In this document: piece after piece, positions 233 to 64,000 of the stretch
Layout of the letters: every line of letters starts with the position of its first letter
How positions within the stretch are numbered: the first letter of the stretch is position 1
IMG/VR virus record: IMGVR_UViG_2974570554_000001
Length of the DNA: 64,000 nucleotides
Reading direction: 5' to 3' (one strand)
From: a virus
Taxonomy: Duplodnaviria; Heunggongvirae; Uroviricota; Caudoviricetes; Demerecviridae
The notes under the pieces: generated by a model
Database searches by the model: none
Told to the model about the DNA's origin: nothing
Seen by the model: only the letters and a program-made list of their open reading frames with translations
Program-made: the position numbers and the translations under genes

Positions 233-254
233 GAGGGCAATTGCCCTCTTTTTA
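232..254 (+). terminator. rho-independent terminator after nrdD
   Basis: agagggcaa/ttgccctct hairpin followed by TTTTT. Confidence 0.6.
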
Positions 255-271
255 ACCCTAGGAGAAAGTAT

Positions 272-484
272 ATGAAATTATTTATGGCATCTTGGTGTAC
301 ATACTGCCAACCAGTTAAAGAACTAATCAAAAATAAAGGACTGGATGTACAACTATTGGATATTGACCACTCGTTCGAGCTAGCTAGTCAATATCGCATC
401 AAACAAATCCCGGCACTAGTATTAGACGATGACACAGTAATGTTAGAATCACTAGAAATTATGCGCTACTTGGAGACTCTATAA
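272..484 (+). CDS. glutaredoxin-like redoxin (NrdC/NrdH-type)
   Basis: 70 aa, CTYC active-site motif, RBS AGGAG, adjacent to nrd genes. Confidence 0.6.
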   Translation: MKLFMASWCTYCQPVKELIKNKGLDVQLLDIDHSFELASQYRIKQIPALVLDDDTVMLESLEIMRYLETL

Positions 485-3173: not shown

Positions 3174-3175
3174 AT

Positions 3176-3658
3176 ATGAATTATATGAATTACTACCCAA
3201 CAGATGTAGTTAATGGAGAGGGGACGCGATGCGTCCTCTTTGTTTCTGGATGTTCACATGGGTGTAAGGGCTGCTACAATGAGGTAGCTTGGAATCCAAA
3301 TAATGGACACGAATTCACCCAAGAACTGGAAGACCAAATTATCAAGGACTTACAAGATACTCGTATCAAGCGTAAAGGTATCACTCTATCTGGCGGAGAT
3401 CCTATGCATAAACGTAATGTGCAACAACTAGTTCAGTTATGTCATAGAATTAAGACTGAATGCCCAGGAAGGGACATTTGGCTCTACACTGGATACACAC
3501 ATGCTCAACTACTAGAAGATAAAAACCCATATCGTCAAGCATTGCTAGGATACACAGATGTTCTAGTAGATGGTAAATTCGAACAAGAACTATATGATCC
3601 AGGCTTACGCTTTCGTGGAAGTAGTAATCAACGTATCATTTACCTAGGGGACGCATAG
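3176..3658 (+). CDS. nrdG: anaerobic RNR activating enzyme NrdG (radical SAM)
   Basis: CSHGCKGC (CxxxCxxC) near the N-terminus; 160 aa. Confidence 0.8.
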   Translation: MNYMNYYPTDVVNGEGTRCVLFVSGCSHGCKGCYNEVAWNPNNGHEFTQELEDQIIKDLQDTRIKRKGITLSGGDPMHKRNVQQLVQLCHRIKTECPGRDIWLYTGYTHAQLLEDKNPYRQALLGYTDVLVDGKFEQELYDPGLRFRGSSNQRIIYLGDA

Positions 3659-3709
3659 CCCCCTTTCATGTCTCTATAGATGTTAACGTCATGTTATATA
3701 AAAATCTTC

Positions 3710-3738
3710 TTGCTATTTCGAGAGAATTTTTATATAAT
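3710..3738 (+). promoter_or_regulatory. T5 N25-type early promoter
   Basis: -35 TTGCTA at 3710, -10 TATAAT at 3733, 17-bp spacer, conserved leader AGTTCCATAAATTGAAAAGGAG. Confidence 0.6.
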
Positions 3739-3768
3739 AGTTCCATAAATTGAAAAGGAGATTGTATT

Positions 3769-4152
3769 ATGTTTTTAGATTATCAATTCTGCGAAGATAA
3801 TGATGTACGTATCGAAAAGATCCACCATCTTTCTACGCTAATCTCTAGTGATAGACGCAGCGATGTTGACGAGCTAATGCACGACTTAGATGGTTGCCAA
3901 ACTCAGTTCCACATCACAGAAAGAACAAAAGAGTTGGCTGACTTTCTAGACGCTGCTTATGAGCAAAAACTGCCAGACTACGCTATCAAAAACGAACTAT
4001 TTAATAAGGGTTTCCATAAAGGTATTGTGCTAGAAACCACGGTATTTAAGCAAGGACAGATTGGACGTCCTATATTATACATTTACGCTGAATCCGAATT
4101 GGAAGTTAAAGCTTTTATGGAAGAAGTATCTAATATTGTTTGGGGTGATTAA
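3769..4152 (+). CDS. hypothetical protein
   Basis: ORF downstream of the early promoter with RBS GGAG. Confidence 0.5.
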   Translation: MFLDYQFCEDNDVRIEKIHHLSTLISSDRRSDVDELMHDLDGCQTQFHITERTKELADFLDAAYEQKLPDYAIKNELFNKGFHKGIVLETTVFKQGQIGRPILYIYAESELEVKAFMEEVSNIVWGD

Positions 4153-4511
4153 TGAATATTCTATTAAGAGAGCGTTGGGAGCAAATCGTAAGTAATGTTC
4201 CAGCAACAGTAATACTTCCATCGGATATTGTGGACTTTATGTGCGAGTTCGGAGAGTCTCTAATTGACTCTAATGAGTGGCATGAAAACAGTTGGACTCT
4301 AATTGGCTTCGCTTTTGGCAATCCAAAGTGGTATCCCTTCGCCATAGAACTAGATATGGAAAAAGACTACACATACTGCCACATGGTACATGAGTTATTC
4401 GATGGTGATGGTGACTTAGAAAACGAATTTTTCGCAGACCTAATGAATGCTATCCCTGCGTACCGTAAACGCTTCTGTGATAATTTACTGGAGTTATTGA
4501 ATGACGATTAA
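4152..4511 (+). CDS. hypothetical protein
   Basis: Start overlaps the previous stop (ATGA); acidic. Confidence 0.5.
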   Translation: MNILLRERWEQIVSNVPATVILPSDIVDFMCEFGESLIDSNEWHENSWTLIGFAFGNPKWYPFAIELDMEKDYTYCHMVHELFDGDGDLENEFFADLMNAIPAYRKRFCDNLLELLNDD

Positions 4512-4947
4512 CAGTTTCCGAGGGGAACATGCGTTCCTATCTAATATGTTTGAAGTGGTAATTGAACATGACGGCATTACTTATCCTTCTAGTGAGAACA
4601 TGTATCAAGCGTTCAAAGCAGAAGAAAAACGAGAACGTAAGCTAATTGCTAAATTACCTCCAAACCAATCAAAGAACTACTGGAAATTTAATCCAGTTAA
4701 AAACCAGCTTTTCCATTGTAATAAACTAGCTTACATGGAAACCTGTCTAAGAGCCAAGTTCTCAAACCCACACCTAGCACATCTATTGCTAGCAACTGGT
4801 GACGCAGAGCTTATTGAAGGCAATTGGTGGGGTGATGGTTTCTGGGGTGTAATTGAAAAGACTGGTCACGGTCATAATAACCTTGGTAAGCTATTAATGA
4901 AGATTCGAGAGGAACTCCGTGAAGAACTTAAAGCAAAAACTAACTAA
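4501..4947 (+). CDS. NADAR/YbiA-like (DUF1768) protein
   Basis: N-terminal FRGEHAFLSNMFE...YPSSENMYQAFKA matches the NADAR signature. Confidence 0.65.
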   Translation: MTINSFRGEHAFLSNMFEVVIEHDGITYPSSENMYQAFKAEEKRERKLIAKLPPNQSKNYWKFNPVKNQLFHCNKLAYMETCLRAKFSNPHLAHLLLATGDAELIEGNWWGDGFWGVIEKTGHGHNNLGKLLMKIREELREELKAKTN

Positions 4948-5131
4948 GAATCCTAAACTAACATGTGGTGTAGGTTTGAAAGATGCAACGCCAGAAGAAA
5001 TAGCTGATATTAAGAAGTGGCTAGACGTTCGTGGTATTAAGTATGTACACAGAACTACTCACCTAAAGACAAATAATCCATTACCTTATAATGGTTTACT
5101 AATTATTAATCTTATCGGGACAAAGAAATGA
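4919..5131 (+). CDS. hypothetical ORF (GTG start, weak)
   Basis: Track ORF that overlaps the NADAR 3' end; no clear RBS. Confidence 0.2.
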   Translation: MKNLKQKLTKNPKLTCGVGLKDATPEEIADIKKWLDVRGIKYVHRTTHLKTNNPLPYNGLLIINLIGTKK

Positions 5132-5610
5132 CGTATGGCGTAGAAGACTTTAAGCCCTTTTATAACTATAAAATATACCCAGATGGGAGAGTATGGTCTT
5201 TAGCTAAGAAAAGATTCTTATCTCCATTCAAAAACAATTCTGGCTATTTGATGGTTAATCTATGCTTAAAAGGAAAAAGCACTAAGAAGCTGGTACATAG
5301 ACTAGTTGCAGAATTATTCGTAGAAGGAAAACAACCAGGATTGGAGGTCGATCATAGAGATCGGGACAAACTGAATAATTGGTATGAAAACCTGCGTTGG
5401 CAAACTCACTCAGAAAATGCCTCTAACAAAGGTGTCATAAAAGTAAAGAGCTATCCGAGTGTTAGAGACCCTAACGGGGTAGTGCACGAGGTAGAGCCTA
5501 ATATGAAATACTTTTGTATAAATCATGGGTTAGATAGGTCAGCCATGTCAAAAGTTACTCGTGGTATTTGGAAACAGTACAAGGGGTGGAGGTTAGCAAA
5601 TGACTTATAA
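5128..5610 (+). CDS. HNH homing endonuclease
   Basis: VDHRDRDKLNNWYENLRWQTHSENASNKG HNH motif; GYLMVNL N-terminal pattern of phage HNH homing enzymes. Confidence 0.65.
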   Translation: MTYGVEDFKPFYNYKIYPDGRVWSLAKKRFLSPFKNNSGYLMVNLCLKGKSTKKLVHRLVAELFVEGKQPGLEVDHRDRDKLNNWYENLRWQTHSENASNKGVIKVKSYPSVRDPNGVVHEVEPNMKYFCINHGLDRSAMSKVTRGIWKQYKGWRLANDL

Positions 5611-6061
5611 AGTATATACAGACGGCGGTTCAAGGGGGAATCCAGGTGTTGGTGGCTGGGCGTTTGTAGTATATCAGGGGTGGAGTGAAAAAGGGCATAA
5701 AAGTGGCGCGTTCGCAAAAACCACTAATAATATAGCCGAGCTAACAGCTATTGTAGAAGCTCTGCAATGGGCTATCCGTGCTAAGCTATCTCACATTGAA
5801 ATTCTAACAGACTCTAACTACGCTGTCCAAGGTTACAAAACGTGGATGCATGGTTGGGTTAAGAAAGGTTGGAAAACTGCGGGTGGAACTCCAGTTAAGA
5901 ACCTAGAACTTTGGCAGACATTATATAATATTTCTAGTCAAATTGATGTAACAATGACAAAAGTCAAAGGTCACTCAGGCATTGAAGGCAACGAACGAGC
6001 AGATGCTCTGTGTAATTGTGCAATGGACGAGTGGGAACTTGAAAATGTGGTGATGAAATGA
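5600..6061 (+). CDS. rnhA: ribonuclease H (RNase HI)
   Basis: YTDGGSRGNPG...TNNIAELTA...TDSNY...VKGHSGIEGNERADAL carry the catalytic DEDD/H residues. Confidence 0.8.
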   Translation: MTYKVYTDGGSRGNPGVGGWAFVVYQGWSEKGHKSGAFAKTTNNIAELTAIVEALQWAIRAKLSHIEILTDSNYAVQGYKTWMHGWVKKGWKTAGGTPVKNLELWQTLYNISSQIDVTMTKVKGHSGIEGNERADALCNCAMDEWELENVVMK

Positions 6062-6264
6062 GTAATTTTATTTGGAACATCAATTTCCTTATATTCTGGC
6101 GTCTAGCTTGGATTAAGAAAGGGTGTGAAGTTTTTGGTGATAATTGGGGTCAGATAGGTAGACTTTGTTATACCAAACAAACCACGCCTTACAAGTTCAT
6201 TATTCAACCAAAGATCACAAAGATTAAAAATTGGTTTGCTAATTTGGATAATAACTTGCTATAA
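6058..6264 (+). CDS. hypothetical small protein (weak)
   Basis: ATGA overlap with rnhA; Trp-rich; its 3' end overlaps the next promoter. Confidence 0.25.
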   Translation: MSNFIWNINFLIFWRLAWIKKGCEVFGDNWGQIGRLCYTKQTTPYKFIIQPKITKIKNWFANLDNNLL

Positions 6265-6265
6265 T
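6236..6265 (+). promoter_or_regulatory. T5-type early promoter
   Basis: -35 TTGCTA at 6236, -10 TATAAT at 6260, leader CATAGTTTGAAAG...GGAG. Confidence 0.55.
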
Positions 6266-6296
6266 ATTCGCATAGTTTGAAAGAACGGAGATTAAA

Positions 6297-6515
6297 ATGA
6301 TTTTAAAAGAAGATAATGTGGTTCAAAAAGATGGGCTGATGCACTTTACTGTGTACCACTCTAGAATAGACTTTGGTGTCTTTAAGAAGGGTGACGAAGT
6401 TTTCGTTTATAAAACAATCGAAGGTTTAGGTGACTTACAAGTACATAAGGCTGTACCGCTAGATACAGACCAAGTACACTACTTCTTCGACCATGAATTA
6501 GATCTGGAGCAGTAA
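6297..6515 (+). CDS. hypothetical protein
   Basis: RBS ACGGAG; 72 aa. Confidence 0.5.
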   Translation: MILKEDNVVQKDGLMHFTVYHSRIDFGVFKKGDEVFVYKTIEGLGDLQVHKAVPLDTDQVHYFFDHELDLEQ

Positions 6516-6516
6516 T

Positions 6517-6781
6517 ATGCCAAAAGCAACTGGTTACGAAAAAAGCATTTATTAAAGAGTGGGAAGATTGGGACGGCGATCAGTCAGTTCTAGCTTTCTA
6601 CAAATGTAAACTAGATGGTATCTTTGCCATTCTAGCAGATACAGAAGAAGCAGATGTAGTTGAAATTGATAACGAAAATTGTGTAGTTAATCTATATAAC
6701 TTTGGCGACAATGAACCATTCTTCGTACAACCGTTTAAAATTACTCTAGTGGAGAACACCGATGGCGAAAGCAACGATTAA
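6517..6781 (+). pseudogene. ORF interrupted at an A6 homopolymer (12-aa ATG ORF plus a 75-codon ATG-less ORF in the +1 frame)
   Basis: ATG at 6517 gives MPKATGYEKSIY*; a shift of one base inside gaaaaaagc continues as KAFIKEWEDWDGDQS... to the stop at 6781. Confidence 0.3.
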
Positions 6782-6956
6782 GAAAGAAGTTACCGTTACC
6801 TTAACGCTAACTCAAAATGAAGCTCGCTACCTAAAGGGGCTACTACAAAATTGGTTGGGTGAGTTTGAAGAACCTGCTGACCATAAAGAATTACGTAATG
6901 AACTCTTTAACGAAATCAACCAAGCTCTAGGAACTGCTTCACATAACTTCCGTTAA
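6762..6956 (+). CDS. hypothetical protein
   Basis: 64 aa ORF. Confidence 0.45.
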   Translation: MAKATIKKEVTVTLTLTQNEARYLKGLLQNWLGEFEEPADHKELRNELFNEINQALGTASHNFR

Positions 6957-6964
6957 AACTTGAA

Positions 6965-6992
6965 TTGCTAAAACATCAAAAACTTTATATAA
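6965..6992 (+). promoter_or_regulatory. T5-type early promoter
   Basis: -35 TTGCTA at 6965, -10 TATAAT at 6987. Confidence 0.6.
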
Positions 6993-7032
6993 TATTCCCA
7001 TAGTTTGAAAACAAAGAAAGGAAAAAATCAAT

Positions 7033-7308
7033 ATGACTGAACAAAAAGTAACTCTAAAACCTGTAGCTGGTGACTCTCTTCTAATCGGTAAATACCAGTC
7101 TGGTGTAGACCGTAAGGGTAAACCTGTGTTCCGTTCAATGCCAAAAGGCAAAGAACCTTCTACTATCGTGGAAGCGGTCTACGAAGACGGTCGTGTTCGC
7201 TCTAAAGAAGGCGACGTGTACGCAGTACGTCTGAACAAACGTCCAACTGTCATTAAGACTAAGCATGGTAAGAAAGCTCTTCCTGCTCAATGGATTACCG
7301 TAGCGTAA
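7033..7308 (+). CDS. hypothetical protein (basic)
   Basis: 91 aa; RBS AAAGGAAA. Confidence 0.55.
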   Translation: MTEQKVTLKPVAGDSLLIGKYQSGVDRKGKPVFRSMPKGKEPSTIVEAVYEDGRVRSKEGDVYAVRLNKRPTVIKTKHGKKALPAQWITVA

Positions 7309-7475
7309 TGGCTAAGGTACTTGTTGATGAGTCCGTATTATGGGGACTCATCAACTCCGACTTACTACTTCAACACCTAGAAAACGAAGGTGTTGATAAC
7401 TGGTCTGGGTACTATCATCCTGAAGACCTAGACGAACAAACTAACAAATTATTGAAGGAAATCAAACATGGCTAA
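7308..7475 (+). CDS. hypothetical small protein
   Basis: TAATG stop/start overlap. Confidence 0.4.
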   Translation: MAKVLVDESVLWGLINSDLLLQHLENEGVDNWSGYYHPEDLDEQTNKLLKEIKHG

Positions 7476-9089: not shown

Positions 9090-9326
9090 ATGAATGGTAA
9101 AATGGCAAAAAATCTTCGTCGTATTGCACGTGGTCTTACTACTGTGGATTCTAACGAACTTGTAGACGTAACAGGTACAACCCGTATTCGTACTGCACCA
9201 AACGGTACTAAAGTTGCTACCCGAACTCAAGCACACGCTAAAGGTAGTTACCGTAACATGCTTAAAGCGTGTAAATCAAATCGAATCTTCTCGTTTAACC
9301 CAGAAGAAAACGCTCACGTAGCTTAA
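9090..9326 (+). CDS. hypothetical protein
   Basis: 78 aa; RBS AAGGATA. Confidence 0.45.
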   Translation: MNGKMAKNLRRIARGLTTVDSNELVDVTGTTRIRTAPNGTKVATRTQAHAKGSYRNMLKACKSNRIFSFNPEENAHVA

Positions 9327-9361
9327 TAATTATGCAGAGAGCATAAAAATTAAAAATATAA

Positions 9362-9390
9362 TTGCTCTCTGCTAAAACCTTTGTTATAAT
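9362..9390 (+). promoter_or_regulatory. T5-type promoter (first of a tandem pair)
   Basis: -35 TTGCTC at 9362, -10 TATAAT at 9385. Confidence 0.45.
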
Positions 9391-9458
9391 GGTTATCTAA
9401 ATTAAAGAAAACCTCTTCATCAAATTTGAAAGCATTTGGTACTTAAATTAAAAATGTC

Positions 9459-9487
9459 TTGCTAAGTGCTTTGAAACTTGATATAAT
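9459..9487 (+). promoter_or_regulatory. T5-type early promoter
   Basis: -35 TTGCTA at 9459, -10 TATAAT at 9482, leader AGTTCCATAAATTGATAAGGAAT. Confidence 0.6.
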
Positions 9488-9517
9488 AGTTCCATAAATT
9501 GATAAGGAATTGAAGAT

Positions 9518-9673
9518 ATGAAAAAACGTGGTAAAATTCAAAAGATTGCAATGTTCGCTCTTGGTTACGGTTCTAGTATCCCTCTAGCGAGTAAGAAATC
9601 TGGTTTAGGTTTACGTCGTACTAAGACTCTAGCTAAACATATTGCCGAAAACGGTTTTCGTATTCGAGACTAA
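9518..9673 (+). CDS. small basic protein (51 aa; ORF track minimum is 60 aa)
   Basis: ATG 7 nt after RBS AAGGAAT; runs into the tRNA cluster. Confidence 0.4.
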   Translation: MKKRGKIQKIAMFALGYGSSIPLASKKSGLGLRRTKTLAKHIAENGFRIRD

Positions 9674-9678
9674 ATAAT

Positions 9679-9755
9679 TGCGAGGATGGAGAAATGGCGT
9701 CTTGCGAGTTTCATAAGCTCGATAACGGGTGGTTCGAATCCACCGCTCGCATCCA
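9679..9755 (+). tRNA. tRNA anticodon CAT (Met or Ile2-type)
   Basis: Anticodon arm cgagt-TTCATAA-gctcg; T-arm ggtgg-TTCGAAT-ccacc; CCA encoded. Confidence 0.55.
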
Positions 9756-9761
9756 AATTAT

Positions 9762-9838
9762 GCGCGTGTAGCTCAGTTGGTTAGAGCATCTGACTTTTAA
9801 TCAGGTGGTCGAAGGTTCGAGTCCTTCTACGCGCACCA
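9762..9838 (+). tRNA. tRNA-Lys (TTT)
   Basis: gcgcgtg acceptor stem; D-arm tagctcagttggttagagca; loop CTTTTAA; T-loop TTCGAGT; CCA encoded. Confidence 0.75.
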
Positions 9839-9839
9839 T

Positions 9840-9915
9840 ACACCGGAAGACAGATGGATTGGTCGTCACCCTTTCAAGGTGGAGTTTGCGGGTTCGAGTC
9901 CCGTCCGGTGTACCA
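9840..9915 (+). tRNA. tRNA-Glu (TTC)
   Basis: Anticodon stem tcacc/ggtgg with loop CTTTCAA; T-loop TTCGAGT; acceptor acaccgg/ccggtgt; CCA encoded. Confidence 0.6.
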
Positions 9916-10116
9916 AATTTAAGATTTCTTTAGCTAGTATCCTAAACCGTGCCAGTGCAAAGAACAACTCACCACCGAACGCAAGCAGCTAGTAGGTGGG
10001 GAACTGAGAAGTGGCGTTCTCAGCCGGAATTGCAATCCGAGTGGAGTATAGGGGTGTCGGTCGGCTACCACAGAGCAGCGAGATGCTAAGGGTATTAGGC
10101 TAAAGAGATTTTTAAC

Positions 10117-10193
10117 GGGGAATTAGCTCTAATTGGGAGAGCACCTGCTTTGCACGCAGGGGGTTATCGGTTCGAATCCGTTATTCTCCACCA
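10117..10193 (+). tRNA. tRNA-Ala (TGC)
   Basis: D-stem gctc/gagc; anticodon stem cctgc/gcagg with loop TTTGCAC; TTCGAAT T-loop; CCA encoded. Confidence 0.65.
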
Positions 10194-10199
10194 AATTCT

Positions 10200-10276
10200 A
10201 GAGGCTTGGCTGAGTTGGTTATAGCGACTCCTTCATGCGGAGTAAGACGGGGGTTCAAGTCCCTCAGCCTCTACCA
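10200..10276 (+). tRNA. tRNA-Met (CAT)
   Basis: Acceptor agaggct/agcctct; anticodon stem actcc/ggagt with loop TTCATGC; T-loop TTCAAGT; CCA encoded. Confidence 0.6.
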
Positions 10277-10304
10277 AGAATATTTATAAATAGGAATAAC
10301 CTAT

Positions 10305-10838
10305 ATGCCAAAACTAGTTACAAACAATAGAAAACAAAACCTAGAGAAAATAGAAGAACTATTTCTCGAACGACTAAAATCAGAAGGTATCACAGAAGCT
10401 CTAATGGGTAAGATGGTAAAAACCTTTTACGGTACAGCTCCTTGGTATTCTGCTAGAAGCAGAAAAGCACAGAAATCTCGTAGACAAATGTTCTACTACA
10501 TGGGTCACTCTCTGCTACTACTATGCAAAAAACACAGTATACCTACTAAAGCTGGTTTTGTGTACGCTGTAACTAATAAAACATTTCCAAACTGTGTAAA
10601 GTTGGGACACACAAAAGATTGTGAAGACCGACTAATGCAGTACCAAACACATAGCCCACTAAAAGACTATGAAATGACTTGGCAGCAGTTCACCCTAGAC
10701 TCTTATGCTGCAGAGCAGAAACTTCTTTCATTATTTGAGAGAATACGCCCTAACGGGGAGTGGGTAAGTCTACAAACTGAGGACACTTTAAAGTTGAAAC
10801 AGTTACTAAATAAAAGTTTTAAAAGTTTGTCGTATTAA
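10305..10838 (+). CDS. T5orf172 / GIY-YIG-like domain protein, a putative homing-type endonuclease inside the tRNA cluster
   Basis: GFVYAVTNKTFPNCVKLGHTKD...RLMQYQTHSP resembles the T5orf172 (GIY-YIG superfamily) core; it lies between tRNA genes. Confidence 0.5.
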   Translation: MPKLVTNNRKQNLEKIEELFLERLKSEGITEALMGKMVKTFYGTAPWYSARSRKAQKSRRQMFYYMGHSLLLLCKKHSIPTKAGFVYAVTNKTFPNCVKLGHTKDCEDRLMQYQTHSPLKDYEMTWQQFTLDSYAAEQKLLSLFERIRPNGEWVSLQTEDTLKLKQLLNKSFKSLSY

Positions 10839-20914: not shown

Positions 20915-21278
20915 CCCATACGTAATCATTGGTGTACTTTCTGTATCGCTAGCTGGCGCAGGGTATTTTGGGTATTACCAAACCAAACAGTTAGGTGCAG
21001 CCGAGGTAAAGCTAGACGCTGCCAATCTAGAAATTAAGAATAAAGAAGCTACCATTACACAGCTTCAAATCGAAAATGGAAAAATTATCGAAAAAGCTCA
21101 ACGGTATCAGGCTGATGTTCAGCGTGTACAGCTTGAGAAAGATAAAATAAAAGAAAAAGCCATTAAAGACTTAGGTAGGGTCGAGAAGATCGCTAAAAGA
21201 AAGTCAAAATTATATGAAAAATTAATAAATAAAGATTATAAGAATACACAACGTCAATTGGAGGAGCTAACTCAATGA
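20907..21278 (+). CDS. i-spanin-like protein (N-terminal TM helix plus coiled coil)
   Basis: N-terminal TM helix, then a K/E-rich coiled coil; translationally coupled to a lipoprotein gene. Confidence 0.4.
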   Translation: MFNPYVIIGVLSVSLAGAGYFGYYQTKQLGAAEVKLDAANLEIKNKEATITQLQIENGKIIEKAQRYQADVQRVQLEKDKIKEKAIKDLGRVEKIAKRKSKLYEKLINKDYKNTQRQLEELTQ

Positions 21279-55836: not shown

Positions 55837-56185
55837 ATACTTAGGGGATGTTTATAGCATCCCCAAAAAGACTTACGAGTTCTGCATAGCTAGAAACTTA
55901 CTGCGCAAGCTCTTTGCAGAAGCTATACCAGACAATCCAAGCCATGAACGTAAGACGTTCTTTATTCTATCGACATACGACCCAGACTTCCGCTGGTTTA
56001 GCGCAAGTTCTAAGAATCCTAGATATTATAGGAGATTCAATGATACTGTCAAACATCTAGCAATACCAAATCTCACTAGCAATCAATGTAAGTTTCTTGA
56101 CAGTATAACCAAGGACTTGACAGATTTTCGACAAGCCATCAAACTATCCAAGGAGGCTGTAAAAACCATATACGAAATTTCTTGA
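55826..56185 (+). CDS. hypothetical protein
   Basis: 119 aa; last + strand gene before the non-coding region. Confidence 0.45.
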   Translation: MKFRYLGDVYSIPKKTYEFCIARNLLRKLFAEAIPDNPSHERKTFFILSTYDPDFRWFSASSKNPRYYRRFNDTVKHLAIPNLTSNQCKFLDSITKDLTDFRQAIKLSKEAVKTIYEIS

Positions 56186-56210
56186 CAATTCATGAGAAAG
56201 GCTTTATAAT
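56182..56210 (+). promoter_or_regulatory. consensus sigma70 promoter firing into the non-coding repeat region
   Basis: -35 TTGACA at 56182, 17-bp spacer, -10 TATAAT at 56205; no ORF for more than 1.2 kb downstream. Confidence 0.5.
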
Positions 56211-56459
56211 ATATCTAAAGACCTATAGACATTTATGACAGGGCTAGGGATGAGCCACAGCGTGACGTGACAAAAATTACGACACGTCCTAAGCACAGGC
56301 TAGCACACAGACCTTGCCCGTCATGAGATATAAGGGGGAGTATTAACTAAAGAAAACTATATTTATAGACGAACAGAATACGCCCCGCTATAACTCTAGC
56401 CTGCTATTACAACAACCCTATTCTTCACTCTAGCTTCGTATGATGTCTAGAGTTTTCTT

Positions 56460-57000
56460 GTATCTAGAATTTGCACCACCTCACGTTAGTGTATCCTCGG
56501 CATATCTCGTGCGAAGCACATGTCTAGCCGGAATTGGGGGAAGGACAAAGGGTACAATAGGTTCTATCATTAATAGTAGAAGTCGGATTTGCACCTGGTT
56601 AAGGAGCGACCCCCGAAAAGTCAATTGGTTTTTCCAAATTTCTGCCCAAATCCCACAAAATCTTTAAATCCTGTCTGTTTTGCACCTAGACCACCATATA
56701 ACCCCCATAAACGCCTAAAAAACTCGAAAAATCCAATTTGAGGTCGGATCCGCACCTGCTGGCGGGCGCAGAGTGTCAATTGAAGTTTTATCGAATTTGC
56801 ACCGCTCGCGCTAGCGTATCCACACCCAAATTCGGGCATAATATGTGCGCAGCACGAGTCTAGCCCGTGTCCCCATGTCGGTTCTGCACCTAGTCCCACC
56901 AAAATAATTTATAATAGAATTTGCACCTACTGCCCCAAGAATGTCGTTTTTGCACTTGTCGGATTCGCACCTACAGGCGCAGAGGACATCGAGCCGTCTA
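56460..57000. repeat. array of about 9 dispersed TTTGCACCT-type repeats (GTCGGATTTGCACCT core) plus the palindrome CTAGACGTCTAG
   Basis: Copies near 56469, 56589, 56676, 56751 (TCCGCACCT), 56803, 56888, 56924, 56950 and 56964 with irregular spacing; non-coding. Confidence 0.6.
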
Positions 57001-57049
57001 GACTTCTATCCATCTAGACGTCTAGCCATCCGTATGGCATACTGCAAAC

Positions 57050-57250
57050 CGTTACAGTACACCGTGTTGTATAAAATTTTACCGTATACCGTCCCGTATA
57101 AAATATGGCACGATTCTTGCTTATTAAAAAGTTATCCACAACTGTATATTTATACATCGCTCTAAAACGCTCTATACAGAGTTATCCACAACCTTATCCA
57201 CCGAAAAACTACTGTATAGATATACAGATATATACTTGCCTTATATTATT
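57050..57250. promoter_or_regulatory. DnaA-box cluster with iterons and an AT-rich palindrome (origin-like, or host-DnaA binding as at the T5 injection-stop region)
   Basis: TTATCCACA at 57133 and 57183, TTATCCACC at 57194; repeated CCGTATA / GTATAAAAT; palindrome TGTATAGATATACAG. Confidence 0.5.
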
Positions 57251-57480
57251 TCGAATACCGTTTCTAGCGCCTATAAGCCACGTACAGACGTTTTAAGCCT
57301 TTTAGGGTACTATGACGCCTACACCATCCTATACGCCCATAGCGCCATGTAACACTAGCACGACTTTTACGTGCTGCCGGAGCGGCGCGGTTTACCATAC
57401 TGTAAACAAGTTACAGATAGGTGTACGGTAAAAGTTGATGAAAAAGCGTCACTTTTCGGTGACGCTGTAACAGTTTAAAT

Positions 57481-57687
57481 CTAGTCTATAATCCAGAGGT
57501 ATTCCCCTTCTTTCAATCCTAGCAAGTGGTTAAACCCTGTCAGGATACGCCCCCACGGGATAGGGCTGCCCTCCATAGTCTCACACCACTCCAAGTACAT
57601 AGTGGTGATATTTTCGCTAAAATCACCGTTTCTTACACGGTCTTGAATTTCACCCAAGCCGATAATCACTACAGAATGGCGTTCCAT
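57481..57687 (-). CDS. hypothetical small protein (leftward operon)
   Basis: 68 aa; its start abuts the stop of the upstream minus-strand gene. Confidence 0.45.
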   Translation of the reverse strand: MERHSVVIIGLGEIQDRVRNGDFSENITTMYLEWCETMEGSPIPWGRILTGFNHLLGLKEGEYLWIID

Positions 57688-57867
57688 TTAGTTTACCTCC
57701 ACCGGATAAAGTTTGTTTACTACAGCGTACACCGTACCGTTATCATCTTGCCACACCTGACCAAATTCGGTGGTTTCTACGTGCTTCAAAATCATAGGAA
57801 CAATATGACCATTATGCATAATGTTGCACATCCAAGTTTGTCCCAAGGTCATAACGTGAACGCTCAT
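57688..57867 (-). CDS. hypothetical small protein (59 aa; ORF track minimum is 60 aa)
   Basis: ATG 57867..57865 overlaps the upstream stop (ATGA); translation MSVHVMTLGQTW... Confidence 0.4.
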   Translation of the reverse strand: MSVHVMTLGQTWMCNIMHNGHIVPMILKHVETTEFGQVWQDDNGTVYAVVNKLYPVEVN

Positions 57868-58112
57868 TAGTAAGTTACCTTTAGGTCAGCAGTTAATGAA
57901 ACACGAAATTCTTGTGTCGCAGGTACTTCAAAAAATATACCACTCCCAAGACTTACAACGCCGATATATTTATCGTCCACGCCGTGAACGTTATCACAAT
58001 CTGTCACGATAAGAGGGGCGTTATCCTCATCTAGCACGATTGTTCCCGCAGCAATATCATATAGCGGTAGTTTCTTGCTACTAGTAGCCGTTGCAATTGA
58101 TAGTTTACTCAT
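57867..58112 (-). CDS. hypothetical small protein
   Basis: 81 aa. Confidence 0.45.
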   Translation of the reverse strand: MSKLSIATATSSKKLPLYDIAAGTIVLDEDNAPLIVTDCDNVHGVDDKYIGVVSLGSGIFFEVPATQEFRVSLTADLKVTY

Positions 58113-58217
58113 TTTAGAATCACCAAAATTTTATTATAGTCCATACGTACCGTATAAAACGGTTTGCCATTTCTAGCAGCCCATAGCAACGCAGTTGCAT
58201 AGTTGTCAAATTCCATA

Positions 58218-58448
58218 CTAATAATGTGTCGGTAGGTTAAGTCTTAACAATCCATTGCGAACACCAAAACATAGGTGCTTACATTCTACAGGTTCAAGCT
58301 CGCAAGGGTAGCACATAAAAGACTCACCACAATAAACATACGGGGATACTACAGAAATATAACTCCCGTCAATGGCTACAATAACACCACATTTGCCGTT
58401 AGTATCTTTGCAGCGACCTTTTACTTTTACAATTTGGTTAACTTTCAT
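58218..58448 (-). CDS. hypothetical Cys-rich small protein
   Basis: 76 aa, 7 Cys. Confidence 0.4.
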   Translation of the reverse strand: MKVNQIVKVKGRCKDTNGKCGVIVAIDGSYISVVSPYVYCGESFMCYPCELEPVECKHLCFGVRNGLLRLNLPTHY

Positions 58449-58522
58449 TTATGGGTACTCCGTAGGGTATAGGGTACACATAGCATACCCTAAACATGTT
58501 AACACAATGATTACAACTAACA

Positions 58523-58843
58523 TTATAAATCTAGCCATCCATTGTAAAACGTTGCGCCCTCAAAAATCGCGCGCCATGTTAACAAGTCAGCCCTAGCGTA
58601 TTGGTACAGCATACCGCCATTAGTCGCGCCCTTAGCAAAAGCTATAGCATACGCTAAAACTTTAGCTTTTAACACGTCCTCGACATCATTGAAAAGGCTG
58701 ATATTTCGAGTGATTTCGAAATGGTATTCTTTGTTGCTCAAGAAGCATTGAGCCATTTCTAGACGTTTGCTCATTGGAGTATCCGCGTCCAGTTGGTACG
58801 CTGTACTGATTTTTGGTTGTTCTAAAAATTGTTGGTACGACAT
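58523..58843 (-). CDS. hypothetical protein
   Basis: 106 aa. Confidence 0.45.
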   Translation of the reverse strand: MSYQQFLEQPKISTAYQLDADTPMSKRLEMAQCFLSNKEYHFEITRNISLFNDVEDVLKAKVLAYAIAFAKGATNGGMLYQYARADLLTWRAIFEGATFYNGWLDL

Positions 58844-58919
58844 TTTGTTGCCCTCGCTTAAAGCGGTTATTATTGTCTAGGTCTTAATAATAACCTAGGC
58901 GACTGATAAAAACTTTGAC

Positions 58920-59234
58920 CTAGCTCACAAAATGATAATCTACTTGATCAATACCAATTTCTCGCCAAACGGGATCATTAGTTGTTAGGCCATACCCATT
59001 TAGTATAAAGTCAATACTAGCATTATTACCTAGATTACAAAGCCCTTCAATATTCATTTGGTCGTTATAGAACATAATACCGTAAGCCGGATTAACCATA
59101 ACAGCCAATTGAGAATCATTCTCAATATACCATACGGTATTCTCAGGGCTTTCTTCATCAATGATTTTACGTGCTTCAGCAATGATTGAGTCTAGGCTAA
59201 TCAAAGTTGGTGTTTCTTTACAATTAAAACCCAT
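58920..59234 (-). CDS. hypothetical acidic protein
   Basis: 104 aa. Confidence 0.45.
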   Translation of the reverse strand: MGFNCKETPTLISLDSIIAEARKIIDEESPENTVWYIENDSQLAVMVNPAYGIMFYNDQMNIEGLCNLGNNASIDFILNGYGLTTNDPVWREIGIDQVDYHFVS

Positions 59235-59407
59235 TATTCACTATCCTCTAAACAAGTGCAACAAATTAGACACAAATCGCATTCACCACAAAAATCAGCG
59301 CAGTCATCGCAGTTATCGCATTCTGGACAAACATCCAGATAATCAACCGAGCCACATTTAGGGCAAGGCTCATTATCCGCATCATACTGTTTACACATTT
59401 TTAACAT
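59234..59407 (-). CDS. Cys-rich metal-binding-like small protein
   Basis: CPKCGSVDYLDVCPECDNCDDCADFCGECDLCLICCTC; internal ATG with RBS GGAG; the longer track ORF starts with TTG. Confidence 0.4.
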   Translation of the reverse strand: MLKMCKQYDADNEPCPKCGSVDYLDVCPECDNCDDCADFCGECDLCLICCTCLEDSE

Positions 59408-59462
59408 CTCCAATAAGGGTAAAAACCAACCAATAGGGATAAACAAAACGCTATACTGCAAA

Positions 59463-59585
59463 TTAGTTCAAACATGTTATGCCTACTTTTTCAAATAGTT
59501 TATGCATAGTTGCGGCAGTCGCCACACACTCGCCAGTCTCAATACTGATACAAAACCAAATAACATCAAAAAACATACGGTACAT
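59463..59585 (-). CDS. small hydrophobic protein (40 aa)
   Basis: RBS GGAGGG 7 nt before the ATG; first gene of the leftward operon. Confidence 0.35.
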   Translation of the reverse strand: MYRMFFDVIWFCISIETGECVATAATMHKLFEKVGITCLN

Positions 59586-59744
59586 TGTTTTGCCCTCCTA
59601 GTGGGTAGGCTTTTATTACACTCCTATTTTCATGATTTGTCTAATAACATTTAGTTATATCCACCAGCAAAACGATGCCCAGGCGTTATAAGCGCTGTAA
59701 GCCACTCTGAGAGGTTCTAGCAAAAAGCCTTGTTTTAGTATGCC

Positions 59745-59915
59745 TTACCTGTGGATAACCGCTTACAATGGATTCTAGAGCCTAGAAACGCCATTCTATA
59801 TCGTATAAGCTGTGATTTAGTGTAGATAAAAGCCGTTTTCCTGTTAGTATCTTGTGGATAACCAGTAGATATACAGTATTATTAGAACTTGCTAATGTTA
59901 ATAAGTCTGTGGATA
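59745..59915. promoter_or_regulatory. second DnaA-box cluster, in opposite orientation to the first
   Basis: TGTGGATAA at 59752, 59851 and 59905, in the divergent intergenic region. Confidence 0.5.
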
Positions 59916-60369
59916 AAAAGTTGGCACGAAAATTTCCTAATATATAAATCAAGAAATATTTTGCTATATAATATAACTAGAAATTCTTTGACAAGCTCAA
60001 AAATCTATGAATCGAGTTATGCATGAAAGTGACTAAATATGCAGAAAAATAGCTAAAAGTGCATAAACGATTTAAATGGGCAAACGTACAGGGTAAGGCT
60101 ATTTTTCAATACAGAGCCATACAGAGCGTTTTAGAGGCATGTATAAATATACAGTAGTTTTTAAGTTGGCATGGTTATTGCTACGCGTGCGCATTCTTTA
60201 TATATTTAAGCAAAAATTCGCTGATAGATAAAACCTATCAATAAGCCAAAAAGAAAAGATTTAAACGATTAGACTATAATCCTAGATTCGCTATTATATA
60301 CCCATACCGCAACAACACGGCGGGGAAGAAAAGCTTGAAAAGCTTCTCGAAAAAAGTTGAAAAAAGTTG

Positions 60370-60397
60370 TTGACAAGGTTTTTTAAATCCTTATAAT
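60370..60397 (+). promoter_or_regulatory. consensus sigma70 promoter for the rightward module
   Basis: -35 TTGACA at 60370, 16-bp spacer, -10 TATAAT at 60392. Confidence 0.5.
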
Positions 60398-60561
60398 GGC
60401 AACCAGAAACAACGAAAACGCTCTTTAACAATTTGGAAAATGCGATTTGACCCATTGCTTACTTGATTGGTTGCTGAGTGATAACCGTTAGCTGATTTTG
60501 AGGAAGTCAGCTAACTGAGAATCACTCTCATTTTAAACTAACCTATTAAGAGGAAAATATC

Positions 60562-60999
60562 ATGGCTAAAAAATGGACAGAAGAAATGGCGGAAAAAGCA
60601 GCAACTCTTTACACTGCTAAACTTGAAGCGGAAGGTAAAGAAGCGGCAGCACATACCGATTTTCTTGATACTATTGCGGTTGACGTTGAAGCGGTAAGTG
60701 GTAAAGCGGTTCGCTCAAAACTTACTGTTATGGGTGTTTACCAGAAACCGGACGCCGTAGCTAGTGTAGCTAAAACGAACACTGTACGCAAAGAACACTA
60801 TGTTCGTGCTCTAGCTCATACGCTTGGCTTAGACGCTGACGATTTGGACAGCTTGAAAAACGCTAAAATGTCAGCCCTTGAAGCGTTATCGACTGCGATT
60901 GGTATCACTGATATTCAGGCAGCAAGCGCAAAAGATTACGAACCTGATTTAGAAAAGGTTTGTGAAGCTTTCGAAAACGCCCGTGGTCTAGACCTATAG
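60562..60999 (+). CDS. hypothetical protein (A2-position, pre-early-like)
   Basis: RBS AAGAGGAAAA; 145 aa; codon usage richer in GCG/CCG/CGT than the early region. Confidence 0.5.
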   Translation: MAKKWTEEMAEKAATLYTAKLEAEGKEAAAHTDFLDTIAVDVEAVSGKAVRSKLTVMGVYQKPDAVASVAKTNTVRKEHYVRALAHTLGLDADDLDSLKNAKMSALEALSTAIGITDIQAASAKDYEPDLEKVCEAFENARGLDL

Positions 61000-61080
61000 A
61001 CGCCTAAACAATTAGGGGGAATTATCCCCCTAATTTACAGTGTAAATTTACCCAAGTTTACACTGTAAATTAACCCATAA

Positions 61081-61449
61081 TTGGAGAGTAACAAAATGGC
61101 TAAAATTAGTATTAAATCGCTTTTAAACAATGGTAGCGCAAAACAAGAACTACAAAACAAAGTGGAAAAACTAACAGGTGTTAGTTTTAACTGGCGACCA
61201 AATAACCGTATTTCTGGGCGTACACTGCAAGCCGTCATTGACCTATCAGAGTACAAACGACCGCTTTTTAATGAAAGTGAGATTGATTCGCTACGCTACG
61301 AAAACAAGGCAGCAAAAACAGTTGTTTTGGGTATGTTGTGCGAAGCTCTAGAAATCAGTGACCTAGAACAACGCAAGGCAATTATGACGATTGCGAGTTG
61401 TTCAAGCTCTGACGACTTTGTGACAAAAGTTCTATTCATGTTTGTATAA
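61081..61449 (+). CDS. hypothetical protein
   Basis: RBS TTGGAGAG; 122 aa. Confidence 0.45.
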   Translation: MESNKMAKISIKSLLNNGSAKQELQNKVEKLTGVSFNWRPNNRISGRTLQAVIDLSEYKRPLFNESEIDSLRYENKAAKTVVLGMLCEALEISDLEQRKAIMTIASCSSSDDFVTKVLFMFV

Positions 61450-61523
61450 CGGGACAAAATATTCTAGGGTATTCTAGCGAGTACCCTAGCGAATATTTTT
61501 AACCGCAAAAGCGAGTATATACA

Positions 61524-63188
61524 ATGAAACAAGTAAACGAAGTAATCACAGCAAACGCAACGGCAATCATTAAAGCGGCAAAAGGTCTTAACTTTTGGCA
61601 AAAACGCCTAGATACAAAACGCCGTGAATGTGCTATCGAAATTCGTGATACTCTCAAGCTAGATTTACATTCTACTGTTTTGGTGGAATGGCTAGACGAC
61701 AACAAGCCAGTCAAACCAGTAAAAGCAAAAAGTCATACACAGCAAGCACAGCAAGATATTGAGCCAACGTTTGCGGGTTCACTAACAGGTCGTGAGCGTG
61801 ACCAATTAGAAGACGGTGTTTATGTTCTAACAGCCGGACAAAACAACACTAATCCGCATCCAGTGTTAAAAACATTGCTATCAATTGCAAATGAGCTTGA
61901 TGCTGAATTTGGTATTATGCCAATCAAATACACAACTGTATTGCAAGGTCGTGAGCGCAAAGAGCCTAAATATCATGCAGATATTAAAATGCATGTTCTA
62001 GAGCCTGTTGATACTTGGCTAGGTGGTGAAGGTAACGTGCTACTAGCTAACAGTGCCCAGATTCTACCAACGGCTAAACAGCCAATTAACGCCGCTGAGC
62101 GTTTGAACACTGGTGAATCTATGACCATTGTTGCAAGTCCTCGCCGCCAAGCGAAAACGCTATCACGCCAGAAAAACGGTGCATTCCGTTGGGTTTATAC
62201 TACTGGTGTGTGTACTCAAATGCATTACACTGACAGCCGAGCAGGGGCGGAAGCTGAAGCCGAACATTGCTTAGGTGGTCTATTGATTGAAGTCAAAGAC
62301 GGTTTAGTGAGCCACCGCCGACTAACAGCCGATGAAAACGGCGTGATTATTGATGCAGGTTCGGTGTACTTCCCTGACGGCTCAATCAAAGCTTACAATG
62401 ATGTTTTCGAGCAAAAGCCTGTTATCGTTCTAGGTGATTTGCATTGCGAAAAAATGTGTGACGATTCATTCACCAGAGCATTACGCCAAATTCACGACGT
62501 TAACCCGTCTCTAATCGTGGTTCATGATGCGCTTGATTTTATGAGCCGTAATCACCACAACCGTGAAGACTGGACATTCTTATACCAAATGCAAGACCGC
62601 TCAGTAATTGAAGATTTAACCGATGTAATCAACCACTTGAATGCACTTGCTGACTATGCGCCTGTTTTCATTGTTGAATCTAATCATGATTTAGCTCTAG
62701 ATTCTTGGGTACGTGACAATAAATTCGATGTTCGCAAAGACCCGAAAAACGCCCGTACTTATCACGCTCTAATGCTTGCTTACATTGAAGCAATGGACAA
62801 TAACGAGCTAGGCGATATGGCAAAAATGGATTTAGCATTCCGAGCACTTGCCGATAAATTGCCAGAGCTAAACAGCAATATTGAATTTGGTAAAATCGAC
62901 TCACAACGTCTAGTATTTGGTTATGATGTTTCTATGCATGGTCATGTTGGTACAGGTGGAGCGCGTGGCTCAGCAGTATCATTCAAAAAGATGCGCATCA
63001 AAACTGTAACAGGTCACACCCATTCACCATTTGAAGATAATAATACGGTTGTTGTTGGTGTAACAGGTTCGATGGAAATGGGCTACAACAAAGGCGGTAC
63101 AACTTGGGACAGAGCAAACGCCGTTGTTTACCCTAACTCAACTCACCAACTACTACCAACCTACCTAATCGGTGAAGAACAATTCTAA
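61524..63188 (+). CDS. A1-like calcineurin-type metallophosphoesterase (554 aa; putative host-DNA-degradation / DNA-transfer protein)
   Basis: VLGDLHCE, HDALD, ESNHD, GHVGTGG and GHTHSP phosphoesterase motifs in the C-terminal half; size matches T5 A1 (about 556 aa). Confidence 0.5.
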   Translation: MKQVNEVITANATAIIKAAKGLNFWQKRLDTKRRECAIEIRDTLKLDLHSTVLVEWLDDNKPVKPVKAKSHTQQAQQDIEPTFAGSLTGRERDQLEDGVYVLTAGQNNTNPHPVLKTLLSIANELDAEFGIMPIKYTTVLQGRERKEPKYHADIKMHVLEPVDTWLGGEGNVLLANSAQILPTAKQPINAAERLNTGESMTIVASPRRQAKTLSRQKNGAFRWVYTTGVCTQMHYTDSRAGAEAEAEHCLGGLLIEVKDGLVSHRRLTADENGVIIDAGSVYFPDGSIKAYNDVFEQKPVIVLGDLHCEKMCDDSFTRALRQIHDVNPSLIVVHDALDFMSRNHHNREDWTFLYQMQDRSVIEDLTDVINHLNALADYAPVFIVESNHDLALDSWVRDNKFDVRKDPKNARTYHALMLAYIEAMDNNELGDMAKMDLAFRALADKLPELNSNIEFGKIDSQRLVFGYDVSMHGHVGTGGARGSAVSFKKMRIKTVTGHTHSPFEDNNTVVVGVTGSMEMGYNKGGTTWDRANAVVYPNSTHQLLPTYLIGEEQF

Positions 63189-63207
63189 ACCGTAGCACAT
63201 AAACTAC

Positions 63208-63909
63208 GTGGCGGGCGCAAATGTGATGCCCGTCACACTTTTACTTAACCGCATAAGCGAGTATTTACCAATGAAAAAAGCATACATATTTGACCTAGAC
63301 GGAACAACAATTGATAGTTTTCACCGTGTTGAGCCGTGTCTTGATTCACAAGGTAACTTGAATCTAGATAAATATATTAAGGAAGCTTGCACTCCTGAAA
63401 AGGTAGCCAATGACAAACTGTTGCCCCTTGCCGGATACATGCAACAACTAATCAAACAGGGTGAACTTGTTATCATCCTAACAGCTCGTTACATGCTTAA
63501 TCATGATTATGTTTACCTACGCCGTAACCAATTGAGAACGCCTATCATTTGCAGCCGTGACCAATTGAGCCGTGTATTCGGTGAAGGTAATGCAGCCCGT
63601 ATCAGTGCAATGTCAGACGCACCATACAAACAACAATGGTTCGAGCATCTATTTGCTAGTATGCCACAAGTTACAGAATGGTGTTTCTTTGACGACCATG
63701 ACGGTATATTAGAAATGGCTAATTCATTAAAAGGTGTTACAGCTACAGACGCCAAATTGATGAATCAGTTGTTAGAAATGCAATGGGCTGACATTTACCG
63801 CCAAGGTGAACAAGACACCGCCGAGTTGATTCAAGACCTAATCGCTGAATGTTCACATCAAGACGTGATTTGCAAACCAGAATGGATTGACCAGCTTTTA
63901 GCTGAATAA
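63208..63909 (+). CDS. HAD-family 5'-deoxyribonucleotidase-like protein (Dmp-like)
   Basis: Internal MKKAYIFDLDGTTIDS (HAD motif I); 233 aa versus about 244 aa for T5 Dmp; lies next to the A1-like gene. Confidence 0.5.
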   Translation: MAGANVMPVTLLLNRISEYLPMKKAYIFDLDGTTIDSFHRVEPCLDSQGNLNLDKYIKEACTPEKVANDKLLPLAGYMQQLIKQGELVIILTARYMLNHDYVYLRRNQLRTPIICSRDQLSRVFGEGNAARISAMSDAPYKQQWFEHLFASMPQVTEWCFFDDHDGILEMANSLKGVTATDAKLMNQLLEMQWADIYRQGEQDTAELIQDLIAECSHQDVICKPEWIDQLLAE

Positions 63910-64000
63910 TCAAAGAAAAGCTGTACAAATGAGAATGATTACCGTCCTCAATAAGGGGGGCGGTAATGAGACTTGTTCTCATCTACGGTAGGGTGTGCAC

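Follow-up and report, generated by a model that had tools for sequence, protein, structure and literature searches.

The 1.3-kb stretch at positions 56186-57480 of a 64,000-nucleotide window of viral DNA (the window being the whole stretch analysed) is very probably the Vibrio-phage counterpart, by homology, of Repeat Region 3 (RR3) of phage T5, placed where the unique genome meets the terminal repeat with the pre-early genes A2, A1 and dmp. Megablast places the window in Vibrio phage Thalassa (MG649967.1, 128,602 bp; Demerecviridae, Thalassavirus), of which it forms the right half. A window position equals the MG649967.1 position minus 64,602, and the window end is the record end. The element is of a known kind and is a new member of it, since the published comparison covers 25 enterobacterial T5-like phages and no Vibrio phage (Davison, bioRxiv 10.1101/866236). 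The overall explanation that we favour, with moderate confidence, is an RR3 counterpart that combines a putative stop module for DNA transfer with an array of direct repeats that would mark the terminus. No paper dealing with Thalassa, with a T5 terminase recognition site or with LexA and T5 together turned up in the literature search.

The T5 RR3 (T5 positions 9194-10409) is a 1.2-kb untranslated region that overruns the terminal repeat by 270 bp (Davison, bioRxiv 10.1101/866236). It contains an inverted-repeat module with 3-bp-gap pairs of DnaA boxes, whose partner lies in Repeat Region 2, as well as palindromes and nine copies of direct repeat D (DRD) (bioRxiv 10.1101/866236). RR3 was put forward as the site of the stop signal for injection, iss (bioRxiv 10.1101/866236; bioRxiv 10.64898/2026.04.02.716235), for which the sources are Heusterspreute 1987 and Wang 2005, as cited in the Davison preprint.

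The terminal repeat and the likeness to T5 Repeat Region 3

The Thalassa record was compared with itself, and a direct terminal repeat (DTR) was found, with a conserved block at its deposited inner end:

56606-64000, no strand assigned: right-hand copy of the 7395-bp DTR, by identity to record positions 1-7395
56566-56665, no strand assigned: highly conserved block at the deposited repeat end, reading ...GTCGGATTTGCACCTGGTTAAGGA up to the boundary and GCGACCCCCGAAAAGTCAATTGG... after it (column conservation 0.80-0.91 in 10 Vibrio phages)

Between window 56606-64000 and record 1-7395 there were 0 mismatches across 7395 bp. The terminal duplication suspected by the first-pass annotation, which had been made from the letters of the window alone, is therefore present, although the duplicated block begins at 56606 and not at 56.2 kb. 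Both ends of the Thalassa record carry the same gene set, which consists of small open reading frames (ORFs), A2, a hypothetical gene, A1 and dmp. The genes A2, A1 and dmp are located at the DTR end away from the boundary, while the non-coding stretch 56186-57480 spans it, and the inner boundary at 56606 falls between DRD copies 2 and 3 counted from outside.

The boundary position in Thalassa is the depositor's call. The deposited boundary of the relative Ceto is the base homologous to Thalassa 56606, and those of Hades, Pontus, Gary, Pylo and Cilsick lie at Thalassa-equivalent positions 56423-56990, a scatter that probably reflects imprecise coverage-based calls. Every relative's deposited boundary was within the DRD array or at its edge. 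Among the Pontus, Gary, Cilsick, Hades and Pylo records, three were flagged circular despite holding both repeat copies, and the terminal-repeat ends of these five phages probably need re-mapping. A junction context of the form G(C)GAC/CCCC, with the slash at the junction, was noted at both repeat junctions (56597-56615, and 63983-64000 with record 7396-7405). The inner boundary reads GGAGCGACCCCCG, and the other end reads GTGTGCAC and then CCCCTATC; this may be a shared cut-site context, or chance. Local alignment of the T5 and Thalassa repeat ends in search of a shared cut-site sequence gave a significant match only for the DRD core itself. Likewise, a counterpart of the T5 "direct repeat A" was not found near the Thalassa boundary, where the significant local match was again the DRD core only.

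The first-pass annotation had likened this region to the injection-stop region of T5. The likeness is stronger than it knew: the region is colinear with RR3 and shares sequence elements with it. From the repeat outwards, the Thalassa elements follow one another in this order:

57445-57466, minus strand: intrinsic terminator of the leftward small-ORF operon gp222 to gp214, an eight-pair stem and then a T-run
57129-57229, plus strand: DnaA-box and SOS-box-like module (conservation 0.83-0.99; local alignment to T5)
57052-57104, plus strand: two 26-nt iterons ending GTATAAAAT, the second copy strongly conserved
56992-57031, no strand assigned: five phased 8-bp units, AGCCGTCT AGACTTCT ATCCATCT AGACGTCT AGCCATCC, containing the palindrome at 57014-57025 (32/40 against five tandem copies of AGACGTCT)
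56976-56984, plus strand: GGCGCAGAG, directly inside the innermost DRD copy, at a position matching the T5 7.9% nick
56464-56973, plus strand: nine direct repeats with the consensus TCGgaTTTGCACCT, the same element as T5 DRD (motif scans); the repeat end precedes the last two copies

Both regions are non-coding over about 1.2-1.3 kb, sit at the inner edge of the dmp-A1-A2 repeat and run past the repeat end. As in T5, there are nine same-strand DRD copies with the core GTCGGATTTGCAC, and a 3-bp-gap DnaA pair lies beside a palindrome TACTGTATA..TATACAGTA and has its inverted partner in the second non-coding region of the repeat. Next to the T5 DnaA pair stands palindrome D, TACTGTATAAATATACAGTA, whose Thalassa equivalent is CTGTATAGATATACAG at 57212-57227, and the inverted partner elements of Thalassa parallel the IRCspacerIRD / IRD'spacerIRC' pair of T5. 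Moreover, a GCGCAG nick motif abuts the innermost DRD copy in both phages, a terminator of the preceding operon is present, and a strong promoter in the unique DNA faces the array. When the whole Thalassa region was aligned with T5 RR3, the best local alignment was the DnaA pair with the adjacent palindrome (T5 IRD'/palD), which scored 37 compared to 23.4 ± 2.4 for shuffled sequences (maximum 31). Thalassa differs from T5 in its host (Vibrio) and subfamily (Ermolyevavirinae), in the length of the repeat (7.4 kb vs 10.1 kb) and in the 3' flank of DRD, which is CCT in Thalassa and A in T5.

Matches to the region were found in 58 Vibrio phage records. The non-coding DNA was often better kept than the neighbouring genes; for example, phage Noelle was about 88% identical here and 37% in A1. 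Three blocks stood out in a ten-phage alignment, namely the DnaA/palindrome module, the innermost DRD pair and the 100 bp around the repeat end. The first of these was the most conserved block of the region, and it was 81-87% identical even with V. cholerae phages. For comparison, the A1, A2 and small terminase (TerS) proteins of the Vibrio subfamily share about 30-40% identity with those of coliphages.

The first-pass annotation had described the 1.3 kb as free of ORFs. That it is non-coding stands, while ORFs of up to 93 aa do occur and two of them are annotated in GenBank: gp212 (56621-56902, minus strand) and gp213 (56941-57165, plus strand). These annotations, together with a match of the minus-strand ORF to phrog_34037, would favour a region that encodes two small proteins. 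However, the phrog_34037 family was most likely built from these same annotations, and in Pontus, Pylo, Cilsick, VPT02, pVp-1 and Ceto, in which the DNA motifs persist, both frames are interrupted by stops or frameshifts. The annotators of most relatives left this stretch without a gene call, and a Pfam search of the local ORFs gave no match for either. Since both ORFs are interrupted in most relatives, we consider the stretch non-coding, and the view that it encodes gp212 and gp213 is hardly credible. The minus-strand ORF in particular was rejected as a gene by the conservation analysis, its phrog_34037 match being most likely circular. Furthermore, gp1 at the other end (record 16-297) likewise overlaps the repeat array and is broken in relatives. 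All three genes (gp212, gp213 and gp1) are probably spurious calls.

The DRD array and its possible role in the formation of the terminus

The first-pass annotation had counted about nine irregularly spaced copies of a motif, TTTGCACCT, which it did not recognise. The count was right, with nine same-strand cores starting at 56464, 56582, 56673, 56743, 56790, 56877, 56914, 56943 and 56958, and the motif is the annotated "direct repeat D" of T5. Seven matches to the 13-nt core GTCGGATTTGCAC with at most 2 mismatches were found in the window, all within the array. The nine plus-strand matches in 516 nt compare with a background expectation of 0.057 (Poisson P ~1e-16). The T5 record AY587007.1 annotates nine DRD copies at 9672-10409 with the sequence TGTGCAAATCCGACA, which reads TGTCGGATTTGCACA on the reverse strand. 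The DRD copies of both phages lie on the coding strand of A2, A1 and dmp, upstream of those genes.

The position of the array relative to the repeat end was then compared among phages. The left terminal repeat of T5 ends at 10139, with six DRD copies inside and three beyond, compared to seven inside and two outside in Thalassa. In Klebsiella phage KpGranit, five copies were inside and three outside the repeat end predicted by PhageTerm, and in V. cholerae phage phi 3 the annotated repeat end was spanned by 12 copies. The deposited or annotated end of the repeat falls within the array in T5, KpGranit, phi 3, Thalassa, Ceto, Hades, Gary and Pylo, while the deposited end is at the outer edge of the array in Pontus and at its inner edge in Cilsick. 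D415, from a more distant Vibrio group, has an array of TAGRTTTCGCACAT that retains the half-site TTYGCACAT. Scans of IMG/VR with 14-mers gave multi-copy arrays in 34 of 240 loci, the other matches being single and due to chance; among the matches listed with a size, all multi-copy arrays were on contigs of 96-122 kb.

Some further observations concern the array itself. Read as its reverse complement, GTGCAAATCCGAC, the DRD core looks like the tRNA T-arm (GTTCGAATCC...), and a 3-mismatch scan hence also caught five phage tRNA genes on the minus strand (12086, 12969, 13255, 13332 and 18941); this likeness is probably a coincidence. A small palindrome, GTGCGAAGCAC, occurs at 56507-56517 and 56843-56853, within a 31-nt repeat (56499-56529 and 56835-56865), and its outer bases covary across relatives (TTGCGAAGCAA, ATGCGAAGCAT, ATTTGCAAAGCAAAT).

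Next to the array are sites that resemble those at which T5 DNA is nicked. The pattern GGCGCAGRG was found three times in 64 kb, at 20955-20963, 56765-56773 and 56976-56984, all on the plus strand, compared to 0.21 expected. Besides the innermost site listed above, one of these lies within the array:

56765-56773, plus strand: GGCGCAGAG, T5-nick-like, following a DRD copy (GGCGCAGRG scan)

Among the four annotated major nick sites of T5 that were compared, three read AGCGCAGGG on the reverse strand, which is the nicked-strand side, and the 7.9% nick abuts T5 DRD copy 1. The GGCGCAGAG at 56976 is in the homologous place and on the homologous strand, equivalent to the one nicked in T5. Judging from these motifs, the virion DNA of Thalassa may carry site-specific nicks.

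Arrays of short sites flanking a cut are the usual form of terminase recognition sites, as in the R-sites of lambda cosB, the hexamer repeats that lie to either side of the cut at P1 pac, and the arrays of short repeats adjacent to the T7 terminal repeat. The Thalassa DRD array resembles these in its short same-sequence sites, their irregular spacing and their presence on both sides of the packaged end. It differs in that the end, as deposited or annotated, has no constant position relative to the nearest DRD copy, and in that T5 has a distant DRD pair. In the explanation that we favour, the nine copies would be bound by a conserved protein of the phage, the small terminase most likely, and would mark the concatemer cut for the end that is packaged first. 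Homology with T5 suggests that the dmp end (the right end of the window, 64000) enters the cell first. Since the end injected first is packaged last, the repeat end at the array should be packaged first. A role in terminus formation through terminase is assigned to the array because it consistently straddles the repeat end, and we put this forward tentatively, at somewhat less than an even chance. The candidate binders were not separated by conservation or distribution: TerS (Thalassa gp17, phrog_3802), which is 41-43% identical across lineages, and A2 (phrog_1725) were both present and conserved, were confined to the same phages and had diverged about equally.

The array could instead be the stop or restart element itself, bound by A2 or by a component of the envelope or the virion, and would then overlap the repeat end only incidentally. 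The estimated shear point of T5, 9618, is just before DRD copy 1 (9672), which would leave the array on DNA still outside the cell at the pause. According to its GenBank and PHROG annotations, A2 binds DNA and is needed for second-step transfer; it was conserved in every lineage that was checked. However, two or three DRD copies always lie past the repeat end, which would serve a stop in no obvious way and is typical of cut-flanking sites. T5 also has an internal DRD pair at 79 kb, and binding of A2 to DRD is only postulated. We consider this role for the array unlikely, though it deserves to be kept in view. The internal pair is adjacent, at 79019-79048 of AY587007.1 (annotated copies 11 and 12), inside exo2 and about 370 bp from the 64.7% nick. 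No internal DRD copy like it was found in the Thalassa half-genome covered by the 64-kb window.

The DnaA-box module and the proposed injection stop

The module at 57129-57229 consists of TTATCCACA (57132) abutting CTGTATATTTATACAT (57142), followed by TTATCCACA (57182), a 3-bp gap (acc) and TTATCCACC (57194). The core CTGTATAGATATACAG (57212-57227) comes 9 bases past the DnaA pair, or 6 if the TAC flank is counted. The DnaA boxes reported in the first-pass annotation were thus found at 57132-57202: those at 57132 and 57182 are perfect and that at 57194 matches at 8/9 positions, the pair spanning 57182-57202. Thalassa therefore has one pair and a single box 50 bp apart, compared to two pairs with a 52-bp spacer in T5. 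The window contains five perfect DnaA boxes, all in the two non-coding regions of the terminal repeat. The second of these regions (59586-60561) is apparently the counterpart of T5 Repeat Regions 1 and 2, and also holds a perfect promoter at 60370 (plus strand) upstream of A2. It carries the inverted partner:

59750-60167, minus strand: inverted partner elements in the second non-coding repeat region (three perfect DnaA boxes at 59750, 59853 and 59908)

Within the partner, 60120-60167 is a 48-nt inverted copy of 57129-57176.

The palindrome of the module resembles a LexA operator. The site at 57212 is the sole perfect CTGTAT-N4-ATACAG in the 64-kb window. When compared with the LexA consensus TACTGTATATATATACAGTA (PMC13203515), a CTGT-N8-ACAG palindrome, Thalassa matched at 17/20 positions, most Vibrio relatives at 18/20 and T5 palD at 19/20. 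Every T5-like lineage examined had an SOS-box-like palindrome in its non-coding repeat DNA: in Thalassa at 57212-57227, 57142-57157 and 60139-60154, and elsewhere in T5 (9332 and 6137), KpGranit (5857 and 9484), phi 3 (7229) and D415 (5342, 8439 and 9116). No mention of LexA in the context of T5 was found in the Davison preprint or in the searchable literature.

Between the module and the DRD array are the iterons and the perfect palindrome that had been picked out at first pass. The former are the 26-nt pair at 57052-57104, and the latter is the 12-bp CTAGACGTCTAG at 57014-57025. The palindrome is part of the phased array at 56992-57031, whose 32/40 was the top score of the window, compared to 25 for the best of 500 shuffles. 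Seven of nine other Vibrio phages scored 30-32/40, and the array is absent from T5 and phi 3. A MetJ operator consists of two or more tandem 8-bp met boxes, AGACGTCT (PMC4239095). The five phased boxes of Thalassa are met-box-like at 32/40, but they are not at a gene's promoter. A weaker second met-box-like site was found at 60966-61005.

Sites of this kind could mean a replication origin, at which DnaA boxes, iterons and AT-rich palindromes recruit host DnaA. Three DnaA boxes lie in 70 bp beside the iterons, and a second, inverted DnaA cluster is 2.6 kb away. The Thalassa module shares with the host DnaA clusters oriC and datA its perfect TTATCCACA boxes and their pairing across a short, constant gap, but the Thalassa sites are probably not at a replication origin. 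The T5 literature puts the origins near the genome centre, and at the entry of this DNA the replication genes would still be outside the cell. The adjacent genes include no initiator or helicase loader, and an inverted duplication of the module within the repeat is not an origin layout. An origin here is accordingly very improbable.

A different possibility is that the region is a decoy or landing pad that titrates or reprograms host DnaA, LexA and possibly MetJ early in infection and plays no mechanical part in transfer. The first-entering DNA bears all of the near-consensus sites for three host regulators that have the same specificity in Vibrio and E. coli. However, the met-box-like array is missing from T5 and phi 3, and the sites are few compared to the host regulons. 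The decoy would also leave the DRD array unexplained, and the binding is only predicted. We regard this as improbable, if marginally less so than an origin.

In the explanation that we favour, the module and its inverted partner at 59.7-60.2 kb would be the stop element, acting through bound host proteins as in Davison's DnaA model. By homology with T5, the transfer would come to a pause once about 7 kb (about 5.5% of the genome), including 57129-57229 and the flanking palindromes, has entered, and A1 and A2 expressed from the entered DNA would restart it. The stop role is given to the module on three grounds: no other element is as conserved, it is located just inside the point indicated by the T5 shear data, and the entered DNA carries an inverted partner of it. 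We give this role a chance just short of even. A release of the brake by LexA cleavage after A1-driven breakdown of host DNA was also thought of and set aside, as T5-like phages have been isolated on recA1 hosts, DH5a among them. The genotype of DH5a includes recA1.

A number of points weigh against this explanation. The identity of the two DTR copies in the Thalassa record is probably an assembly product, and the exact DTR end is uncertain because the relatives' deposited boundaries spread over about 570 bp. The T5 DRC/DRE repeats (TTTTTAAATGAGAATCATT) and palindromes E-J are absent from Thalassa, which has in their place an unrelated 8-bp phased AGACGTCT-like array and the GTATAAAAT iterons. 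How far the nearest DRD copy lies from the repeat end as deposited or annotated varies among phages, and the exo2 pair of T5, far from the genome ends, is not explained by a pure packaging signal. It is by position that the array is assigned to terminase, and TerS and A2, being similarly conserved, are equally plausible binders of it. T5 and BF23 are the only phages in which two-step transfer has been verified (Davison, bioRxiv 10.1101/866236), and a pause in Thalassa would follow by homology with T5. Finally, an experimental function has been demonstrated for none of these elements, even in T5, in which iss was never mapped to a motif.

The outer promoter, a candidate RNA and the junction as a whole

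At the outer edge of the region, two features precede the DRD array:

56182-56210, plus strand: consensus sigma-70 promoter TTGACA-17-TATAAT (12/12 match), overlapping the stop codon of gp211, the last early gene
56217-56462, plus strand: predicted structured non-coding transcript of about 240 nt (folding and covariation; both ends inferred)

The perfect promoter at 56182, directed towards the terminal repeat, was correctly described in the first-pass annotation. Its statement that the T5-type promoters stop at about 56.2 kb does not hold for consensus promoters, as further 12/12 consensus promoters were found at 60370 (plus strand, inside the repeat) and 56052 (minus strand). The latter is antisense inside gp211 (56025-56052). 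A cluster of TTCTTGACA elements was also observed in the last 100 nt of gp211 (56097, 56118 and 56182, plus strand). In a regular-expression scan, six of nine phages including Thalassa had a consensus-like promoter at the same place, in the form TTGACA-17-TATAAT in four and as a TG-preceded TTGATA-17-TACAAT in two. In the other three the sequence was near-identical by eye, with a -35 element outside the scan pattern. The position was kept even with a different upstream gene, and T5 has an 11/12 promoter at the same relative position (10799-10771, minus strand).

The sequence downstream of the promoter was predicted to fold. Compared with shuffled sequences, the z value was -4.2 for Thalassa (234 nt), -2.6 for the Pontus counterpart and -3.95 for the T5 counterpart. 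Compensatory changes in five relatives supported 13 of 48 predicted pairs, including a long-range helix. The predicted 3' end, directly ahead of the outermost DRD copy, is a hairpin, CTCTAG...CTAGAG, with TTTTCTTG after it, and the terminal hairpin with its T-run was present in 8/8 aligned sequences. In Rfam, only tRNAs were found window-wide at the gathering thresholds, and the region gave no match at E up to 1. We infer that the promoter at 56182 most likely yields a short structured non-coding RNA and does not read through the array.

The elements common to T5 and the Vibrio phages, namely the DRD core, the DnaA pair with its near-consensus SOS box, the nick motif and the promoter-driven structured RNA, could be combined into a family-wide minimal junction with separable jobs, in which the DRD array would load TerS and set the repeat end, DnaA and LexA at the module would form the brake, and the RNA of about 240 nt would be a new non-coding RNA acting at the junction. 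As a whole this is speculative, and we consider it rather unlikely.

The questions at stake are what halts T5 DNA after 8% entry and how T5-type terminal repeats are cut, and the T5 locus is too crowded with overlapping repeats for dissection by eye. In the Vibrio subfamily, the 13-nt DRD core, the 3-bp-gap DnaA pair, the SOS-box-like palindrome and the nick motif were kept almost unchanged, while the rest was replaced. The outcome is a short, testable list of candidate cis-elements that survive across subfamilies and hosts, and V. harveyi with Thalassa-like phages offers a second experimental system.

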